A DNA stretch of 64,000 nt from Escherichia coli (GCF_029227855.1 NZ_CP074356.1), one strand, 5' to 3'. Shown: positions 61,000 through 61,439, counted from the first letter of the stretch. Notes: a model not told the origin generated them from the sequence alone. Program-made: numbers and translations.

Positions 61000-61029
61000 G
61001 CTCCGTTTAACATTCATTGAGAAAACTGA

Positions 61030-61143
61030 TGCTACTGTGTCAACGATCCGTTATCAGTGCAGGAAAATGCCTGTTAGCGTAAAAGCAAAACACAAATCTA
61101 TCCATGCAAGCATTCACCGCCGGTTTACTGGCGGTTTTTTTTT
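61030..61143 (+). ncRNA. candidate small RNA region ending in an intrinsic terminator (possibly MgrR; identity and strand not verified)
   Basis: ORF-free stretch between dgcZ and mgtS ending in hairpin caccgccggtttactggcgg plus T9 (61115-61143); sRNA identity is a low-confidence recollection. Confidence 0.25.
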
Positions 61144-61217
61144 GCCGTCATAAAAATCAGGCCCCTTGTACACAACTGTAACAAGGGGCCGGTTAGGTGA
61201 GGGATTATCTCCGTTCA

Positions 61218-61313
61218 TTAGTCATCCCATTTGTGGCTGAAATACGCGGCCAGAAAACCAGAAAATAAAATTATTCCCAGTACGGCCATAAAAACATTCA
61301 TATTACCCAGCAT
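61218..61313 (-). CDS. mgtS: small membrane protein MgtS (YneM)
   Basis: 31-aa product MLGNMNVFMAVLGIILFSGFLAAYFSHKWDD; downstream hairpin at about 61160-61190 followed by U-run on the minus strand. Confidence 0.7.
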   Translation of the reverse strand: MLGNMNVFMAVLGIILFSGFLAAYFSHKWDD

Positions 61314-61439
61314 TATTTGCCTCCGTTTATGGTGTGGTGTGTTTCCTCGCTTACCTTAATTTTCATCTCAATGAGAAAGATATTAGCAGAGATAACCTAA
61401 ACGAAGGCTGAATTAAATTTTTATTGTGTTCGACTTAAA

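Follow-up and report, generated by a model that had tools for sequence, protein, structure and literature searches.

Plus-strand positions 61045-61143 of the Escherichia coli window investigated in this study (the whole stretch of DNA analysed, 64,000 nucleotides in length) are, with near certainty, the gene mgrR, which has its own PhoP-activated promoter, ends at a hairpin followed by nine U residues, and encodes a Class II Hfq sRNA that represses eptB, ygdQ and pitA. The identity, coordinates, strand, structure, conservation and synteny of MgrR were established in this analysis, and its PhoP dependence, Hfq binding and targets are taken from the literature. MgrR is already known as a well-studied magnesium-responsive sRNA, and the finding is in itself an ordinary one.

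The region from 59.4 to 62.7 kb harbors ydeI (+), dgcZ (+), a 218-nt spacer, mgtS (-) and ydeE (-), with mgtS and mgrR convergent. By comparison of annotations, the gene order ydeI-dgcZ-mgrR-mgtT/mgtS-ydeE is the same as in K-12, where the locus lies in reverse orientation, and the 551-bp region was found in 5416 of 5426 complete E. coli genomes. The initial annotation had described an interval between dgcZ and a 31-aa mgtS gene, and both the ORF list and RefSeq bear this out, with dgcZ ending at 60999 (+) and mgtS at 61313-61218 (-). Its description of this interval as free of ORFs does not hold, as RefSeq contains mgtT (b4775, 34 aa) at 61218-61114 (-). The features of the locus, with the basis on which each was assigned, are as follows:

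60109-60999, plus strand: coding sequence of dgcZ (diguanylate cyclase); ORF list, RefSeq of a near-identical strain and of K-12.
60993-61009, plus strand: PhoP box AGTTTA-AGCTC-CGTTTA, -52 to -36; PMC8313858 and repeat search.
61015-61020, plus strand: candidate third in-phase half-site CATTGA, -30 to -25; position and conservation.
61030-61038, plus strand: extended -10 element TGcTACTGT; sequence and conservation.
61045-61143, plus strand: mgrR sRNA gene; Rfam RF01407, K-12 b4698, alignment and the numbering of PMC6239178.
61049-61079, plus strand: MgrR 5' stem-loop; MFE fold, covariation and probing in PMC6239178.
61081-61095, plus strand: A-rich (ARN)5-like single-stranded stretch, nt 37-51; sequence and PMC6239178.
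61099-61112, plus strand: seed or pairing region UAUCCAUGCAAGCA, nt 55-68; PMC6239178, identical to K-12.
61116-61143, plus strand: MgrR intrinsic terminator, 8-bp stem at 61116-61135, UUUA loop, U9; terminator scan, fold and covariation.
61114-61218, minus strand: mgtT (b4775), 34-aa small ORF; RefSeq, bioRxiv 10.1101/511675, PMC11429745 and PMC12350097.
61158-61193, minus strand: strong hairpin GGCCCCUUGU...ACAAGGGGCC, then UGAUUUUUAU; fold energy and stem conservation.
61218-61313, minus strand: mgtS (yneM), 31-aa PhoP-induced membrane protein; ORF list, RefSeq and K-12.
61380-61414, minus strand: putative mgtS promoter, AATTCA-N5-CGTTTA (61414-61398), 12-nt spacer, -10 TAATAT (61385-61380); sequence and conservation.
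62627-61440, minus strand: ydeE; sequence and ORF list.

When 56-64 kb was searched with the covariance models of all Rfam families, a single match was obtained, RF01407 (STnc560), at 61011-61224 on the plus strand, with a score of 281.1 bits (E 3.6e-65, threshold 55 bits) over model positions 1-214 of 214. In the K-12 genome NC_000913.3, the ncRNA mgrR (b4698, 98 nt) is annotated between mgtS/mgtT and dgcZ, on the strand of dgcZ. The initial annotation had suspected MgrR on the plus strand, ending at the hairpin and T9, and had proposed an alignment of the known sequence; b4698 aligns to 61045-61142 (+) with 97 of 98 positions identical, one internal substitution and an identical seed, so that sequence, strand and position agree with both K-12 and Rfam. 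The MgrR numbering used in PMC6239178 (G41, U55-A68, 3' U8, 98 nt) also fits the window sequence exactly. With reference to the literature, MgrR is flanked by mgtS and dgcZ (PMC8545128), and mgrR is convergent with mgtS, both being PhoPQ-dependent (bioRxiv 10.1101/2021.06.30.450655).

In Salmonella, STnc560 is an RNA of ~90 nt from the ydeI/ydeE spacer, convergent with the yneM transcript STnc570, and was enriched 29-fold in an Hfq co-IP (PMC2515195). We conclude from this locus description (Sittka 2008) and from the Rfam match on K-12 mgrR that STnc560 is the Salmonella MgrR; an explicit statement that the two are the same was not found in the literature searched. The window shares with RF01407 the full length of the model and the context, convergent with yneM/mgtS, and differs in the upstream gene, which is ydeI in Salmonella and dgcZ here. 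It can also be observed that the RF01407 model, at 214 nt, covers over twice as many nucleotides as the sRNA itself (~98 nt), taking in 34 nt of promoter and, over 61144-61224, the hairpin that probably terminates mgtS together with the mgtS stop/mgtT junction. Because the model spans both units, its 'structure' mixes two convergent transcripts.

Compared with the MgrR of E. coli K-12 (b4698), reportedly that of Moon and Gottesman in 2009, the window MgrR shares the locus, strand, 5' end, structure, seed, ARN stretch and terminator, and differs at nt 4 (U in K-12, C here) and in the tail (U8 in K-12, U9 here). The first difference lies at 61048, where the T of K-12 is C, in unpaired sequence at the 5' end that precedes the first stem. 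The second lies at 61143, where the C of K-12 is T, turning T8C into T9, so that the gene, 98 nt in K-12, measures up to 99 nt here; the same SNP gives MgtT the change E26K relative to K-12. The 91-nt allele of the window is common to ~151 of the 5416 complete E. coli genomes, and PGAP labels mgtT as 'hypothetical protein' in these ~151 genomes.

The predicted fold of MgrR (MFE -25.9 kcal/mol, z = -2.9) consists of a 5' stem-loop, an open centre, a terminator hairpin and a U-tail, and these four parts agree with the enzymatic probing in PMC6239178, in which the 5' stem-loop was stable. Changes on both sides were noticed across genera at 8 of the 11 pairs of this stem-loop. The stretch AAAAGCAAAACACAA (61081-61095) is mostly unpaired in both the MFE and the centroid folds, with a weak helix of 2-3 bp at GC(A). 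This A-rich stretch has been described as (ARN)5 with two mismatches, binding the distal face of Hfq, and the U-tail as the binding site for the proximal face, Class II sRNAs being those that bind both faces; the kinetics of the MgrR-Hfq interaction have been measured in vitro (all PMC6239178). Like the Class II Hfq sRNAs ChiX and MgrR, the window RNA carries an internal (ARN)n and a 3' U-tail, both predicted to be single-stranded, and no difference from this class was detectable in the sequence of the window MgrR.

The plus-strand terminator displays 8 pairs, 6 of them G-C, a loop of 4 and a T run that reaches 61143 (T9), and its hairpin at 61116-61135 has a predicted energy of -13.4 kcal/mol. 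The placement of a plus-strand hairpin plus T9 at 61115-61143 in the initial annotation was accurate. The U-run, T9 in the window and U7-9 across all homologs, is longer than the minimum of six residues expected of a Rho-independent terminator. The terminator scan of the 1.9-kb region gave 3 sites against 1.8 expected, a count which is not significant alone. The identification of MgrR rests on the Rfam match, the K-12 annotation and conservation, and no observation spoke against it.

Homologs were collected by a pattern search with MgrR nt 45-67, taking one genome per species, which gave 34 loci from Escherichia, Citrobacter, Salmonella, Enterobacter, Kosakonia, Phytobacter, Pluralibacter, Lelliottia, Huaxiibacter and other Enterobacteriaceae. 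The conservation of nt 45-67 is circular, as these formed the search pattern, a limitation that does not touch the flanks or the Rfam consensus. Four loci rescanned with RF01407 all scored above the threshold, at 59-196 bits. Among the 34 loci, the promoter, 5' hairpin, core, terminator and U-tail are retained, and in per-sequence folds all homologs exhibit the 5' hairpin, open centre, terminator and U7-9 tail, despite a diverged 5' stem sequence. RNAalifold on the MAFFT alignment recovered the terminator only, the 5' part being misaligned between distant genera, and it was replaced by per-sequence folds with explicit pair counting. When 27 distinct homologs were aligned, 85% of cells were paired as in the E. 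coli structure, with slid controls giving 30-43%; changes on both sides were seen at 9 pairs, and neither the paired fraction nor the covariation score was reached by any of 500 shuffles. The terminator stem was paired in 97% of cells of these 27 sequences, with one covarying pair (AU/GC/GU).

The genomic surroundings of these loci are less uniform. Immediately upstream of mgrR lies dgcZ in Escherichia and Citrobacter and ydeI in Salmonella, and Enterobacter, Kosakonia, Phytobacter and Pluralibacter have neither gene in that place, whereas mgtS is convergent with mgrR in most loci, at 74-114 nt from the MgrR 3' end. The mgrR module is thus tied to mgtS and not to dgcZ, and its retention beside mgtS under a changing upstream gene indicates that the terminator is not simply there for dgcZ. 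The initial annotation had allowed that MgrR might map elsewhere and that the terminator might simply serve dgcZ; the alignment and the synteny both go against this.

The same evidence bears on a reading in which the hairpin and T9 are the terminator of dgcZ only, and no separate RNA gene exists in the spacer, an ordinary 3' UTR. On the same strand, dgcZ ends 116 nt before the hairpin, and the terminator scan detected no other terminator-like site on the plus strand from the dgcZ stop to 61116, for which reason dgcZ transcripts probably also end at the MgrR terminator. Such a role would nevertheless be secondary and compatible with an sRNA. Moreover, the K-12 annotation and published papers define a separate PhoP-dependent RNA of 98 nt, the Rfam match is full length, a conserved activator-type promoter lies between the dgcZ stop and +1, and the module is kept in Salmonella, Enterobacter, Kosakonia, Phytobacter and Pluralibacter without an adjacent dgcZ. 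We therefore regard a terminator serving dgcZ only as exceedingly improbable, and mgrR as a gene in its own right.

Three of the public assemblies stood out. In Enterobacteriaceae bacterium RIT691, a ~1.6-kb insert with ORFs of 127 and 177 aa lies between two MgrR/STnc560 copies (1310-1531 and 2972-3136; 84 and 59 bits); the copy adjacent to mgtS is without a PhoP box, and the distal copy has the PhoP box, a degenerate downstream hairpin and no mgtS, an arrangement suggestive of an insertion with duplication of the sRNA gene. Two further contigs are assigned to organisms outside the enterobacteria: the 'Caldithrix sp.' MAG SMXE01000224.1 carries mgrR-mgtS-ydeE near-identical to E. coli (YdeE 98%), and 'Chryseobacterium sp. 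18061' (CACSKA010000003.1) carries enterobacterial mgrR and mgtS only; the enterobacterial sequence in these two is likely contamination or mis-binning.

Canonical PhoP promoters harbor a box of the form (T/G)GTTTA-N5-(T/G)GTTTA, which replaces the -35 element and ends ~12 bp before the -10. Upstream of mgrR, half-sites recur every 11 bp (AGTTTA at 60993-60998, CGTTTA at 61004-61009 and CATTGA at 61015-61020), so that the search for a PhoP box recommended in the initial annotation did reveal GTTTA-type half-sites, over 60993-61020. The dgcZ stop codon TAA (60997-60999) overlaps the upstream half-site. The -10 hexamer TACTGT (61033-61038) ends 7 nt before +1 (61045), and its TAnnnT pattern is kept across all genera. 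A generic sigma-70 scan upstream of mgrR flagged nothing, and there is no -35 hexamer, as expected of an activator-dependent promoter without a -35 element.

In PMC8313858, a PhoP motif of mgrR at -52 to -36 is attributed to Moon & Gottesman 2009, and this motif coincides with 60993-61009. Its sequence, AGTTTA-AGCTC-CGTTTA, agrees with (T/G)GTTTA-N5-(T/G)GTTTA at 5/6 plus 5/6 positions, a match that is statistically weak alone. No other exact GTTTA-N6-GTTTA occurs in the 64-kb window, the pattern having at least one match in 13 of 100 shuffles, and the PhoP consensus with up to 3 mismatches gave 195 matches against ~161 expected, which is not discriminating. Because the pattern match alone is weak, the PhoP box was judged by cross-genus conservation. 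The half-site at 61004-61009 is invariant as YGTTTA in all 34 of the distinct promoter sequences carrying the anchor, a good half-site at 60993-60998 is confined to E. coli and E. whittamii (0-5 of 6 positions elsewhere), and the third half-site reads CATTGA, TATTGA, TATTTA, CGTTGA or CATTGG across genera. The spacings of 5 nt and 12 nt among the half-sites and the -10 are constant in every genus sampled, and the distance from box to -10 is 12 nt for the register 61004-61020, against 23 nt for the published register.

These comparisons suggest that the conserved PhoP box is the -41/-25 register (61004-61020), one helical turn downstream of the published box, with 61015-61020 as a putative PhoP contact by virtue of its position and conservation. 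With canonical PhoP promoters of the mgtA, phoP and mgrB type, the mgrR promoter in this register shares the 11-bp direct repeat, the absence of a -35 element and the 12-nt distance; it differs from them in that the promoter-proximal half-site of the conserved register is degenerate (CATTGA), and in that E. coli mgrR carries a further good half-site upstream, at a distance of one helical turn (60993-60998).

This promoter also speaks against MgrR being mainly a 3'-UTR-derived RNA, processed from dgcZ-mgrR read-through and not transcribed from its own promoter. As dgcZ and mgrR are not separated by a terminator, a cotranscript containing the whole of MgrR is to be expected. Yet a promoter fusion of mgrR to lacZ that extends up to +10 is active and PhoP-dependent (PMC3536696), the spacing of the conserved PhoP half-sites and -10 is constant, and the sRNA is conserved where dgcZ is not upstream. 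An origin mainly by processing is hence very unlikely, and transcription from the PhoP-activated mgrR promoter remains the preferred explanation.

On the minus strand, the sequence at 61380-61414 is probably the mgtS promoter, with the same layout as the mgrR promoter, and its TTCA, YGTTTA and TAnnaT columns are conserved across genera; the exact sites are those suggested by this pattern. A yneM-lacZ fusion responds to PhoP levels, and yneM is directly activated by PhoP (PMC3536696). A terminator-like hairpin on the same strand (61449-61465, CGTGGGGGCAGCCCGCG then CTTTGTTGAT) spans the region just across the ydeE stop (61440). It is probably the terminator of ydeE, upstream of the mgtS promoter, and would insulate mgtS against read-through from ydeE. 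A PIRT-seq study further detected an extra translated ORF, 'CDS58', upstream of mgtS and proposed a CDS58-mgtS-mgtT unit (PMC12350097); 'CDS58' would correspond to ~61314-61440 (-) of the window.

The minus-strand hairpin at 61158-61193 has an energy of -22.6 kcal/mol and is stronger than the plus-strand hairpin. The 126-nt minus-strand stretch folds at z = -4.2, with none of 200 shuffles as good, and the stem sequence of the hairpin is kept in nearly all genera. It is probably the intrinsic terminator of the mgtS mRNA, and the length of ~190 nt reported for the Salmonella yneM transcript STnc570 (PMC2515195) fits termination at this hairpin. The initial annotation had spoken of a separate minus-strand hairpin serving mgtS; the hairpin followed by UGAUUUUUAU is indeed present, but it lies within the mgtT ORF.

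The mgtT gene begins with an ATG that overlaps the mgtS stop codon (TAATG), runs through the hairpin at 61158-61193, and has its last 30 nt antisense to the MgrR 3' end and terminator. Ribosome profiling of stalled initiation complexes led to its discovery, with confirmation by immunoblot (bioRxiv 10.1101/511675), its translation was seen again by PIRT-seq (PMC12350097), and it is PhoQP-induced within the mgtS-mgtT operon (PMC11429745). Across genera, the ORF in the mgtT frame varies from 8 to 48 codons and often ends before or inside the hairpin, whose arms are conserved. We considered MgtT as a conserved protein and rejected this on account of the ORF length of 8-48 codons and of the conserved 'RPL...KGP' residues, which coincide with the hairpin arms; a variable ORF with conserved hairpin arms points to constraint on RNA structure and not on the MgtT protein. 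The TAATG junction and ~25 nt past the mgtS stop (61194-61225) are likewise conserved across genera (loci L003-L036), and the conserved element there appears to be something other than the full MgtT protein.

The overlap of mgtT with the MgrR terminator raises the question of whether the minus-strand mgtS-mgtT mRNA is the main product, the plus-strand hairpin being an incidental antisense image of mgtT. Codons 25-34 and the stop of mgtT are the reverse complement of the MgrR terminator, and MgtT is detectably translated (bioRxiv 10.1101/511675, PMC12350097). In most genera, however, the ORF falls short of the terminator, yet the stem and U-tail of the latter either stay unchanged or covary, and neither deletion nor overexpression of mgtT had an effect or phenotype (PMC11429745). 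As the terminator is kept where the mgtT ORF falls short, the constraint is on the plus-strand RNA, and the probability that the hairpin is a mere image of mgtT is practically nil. The plus-strand hairpin is accordingly best regarded as the terminator of MgrR.

Since mgtT crosses the probable mgtS terminator, full-length MgtT needs a read-through RNA complementary to the MgrR 3' end, and transcripts stopping at the hairpin at 61158-61193 would have no mgtT stop codon. A functional effect of these overlapping 3' ends of two convergent PhoP-induced units in Escherichia, in which translation of mgtS/mgtT tunes MgrR output, is conceivable though rather unlikely. Ribosomes entering mgtT by way of TAATG would block formation of the hairpin, the blocked hairpin would lead to read-through transcription antisense to mgrR, and pairing with the MgrR 3' end and/or transcriptional interference might follow. 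No description of such cross-talk between mgtS/mgtT and MgrR was found in the literature surveyed.

With regard to the action of MgrR itself, phosphorylated PhoP at low Mg2+/Ca2+ would bind the GTTTA-type direct repeats at 60993-61020, the exact contacts being those predicted above, and the bound repeats would stand in for the -35 element, bringing RNA polymerase to the extended -10 (61030-61038). Transcription would start at 61045 and stop at the hairpin and U9 (61116-61143). Hfq would then hold the U-tail at its proximal face and the ARN stretch at its distal face, in the manner of a Class II sRNA, and would anneal the seed to U-rich mRNA leaders such as those of eptB, ygdQ and pitA, with pairing expected to block translation and destabilise the target mRNA. 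Repression of eptB would leave less phosphoethanolamine on LPS and so alter polymyxin sensitivity.

MgrR has been reported as a PhoP-activated Class II sRNA that pairs with eptB, ygdQ and other mRNAs through nt 55-68 (PMC6239178), its transcription depends on PhoP and low Mg2+ (PMC3536696, PMC6239178, PMC8313858), its mechanism is also described in PMC4651636 and bioRxiv 10.1101/2021.06.30.450655, and its loss raises polymyxin B resistance ~10-fold by way of EptB (PMC6239178, PMC4651636, PMC8313858). The duplex predicted in this study between the MgrR centre (nt 36-72) and the start-codon region of K-12 eptB has an energy of -18.7 kcal/mol, a marginal advantage over shuffles, of which 28 in 500 did equally well. 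A full-length RNAduplex run of MgrR against eptB had returned an unrealistic 84-nt duplex (-40.6 kcal/mol), which was discarded, and the unstructured centre was used.

In summary, recognising MgrR here completes the annotation of the window and brings no new biology, with small additions in that the module is tied to mgtS, the conserved PhoP register appears to lie downstream of the published one, and mgtT overlaps both terminators. MgrR is one of two model Class II Hfq sRNAs. It joins the sensing of Mg2+/Ca2+ by PhoQ/PhoP to the modification of LPS through eptB, and hence to polymyxin sensitivity, and through pitA it has an effect on the balance of phosphate and magnesium as well, beside the neighbouring MgtS.
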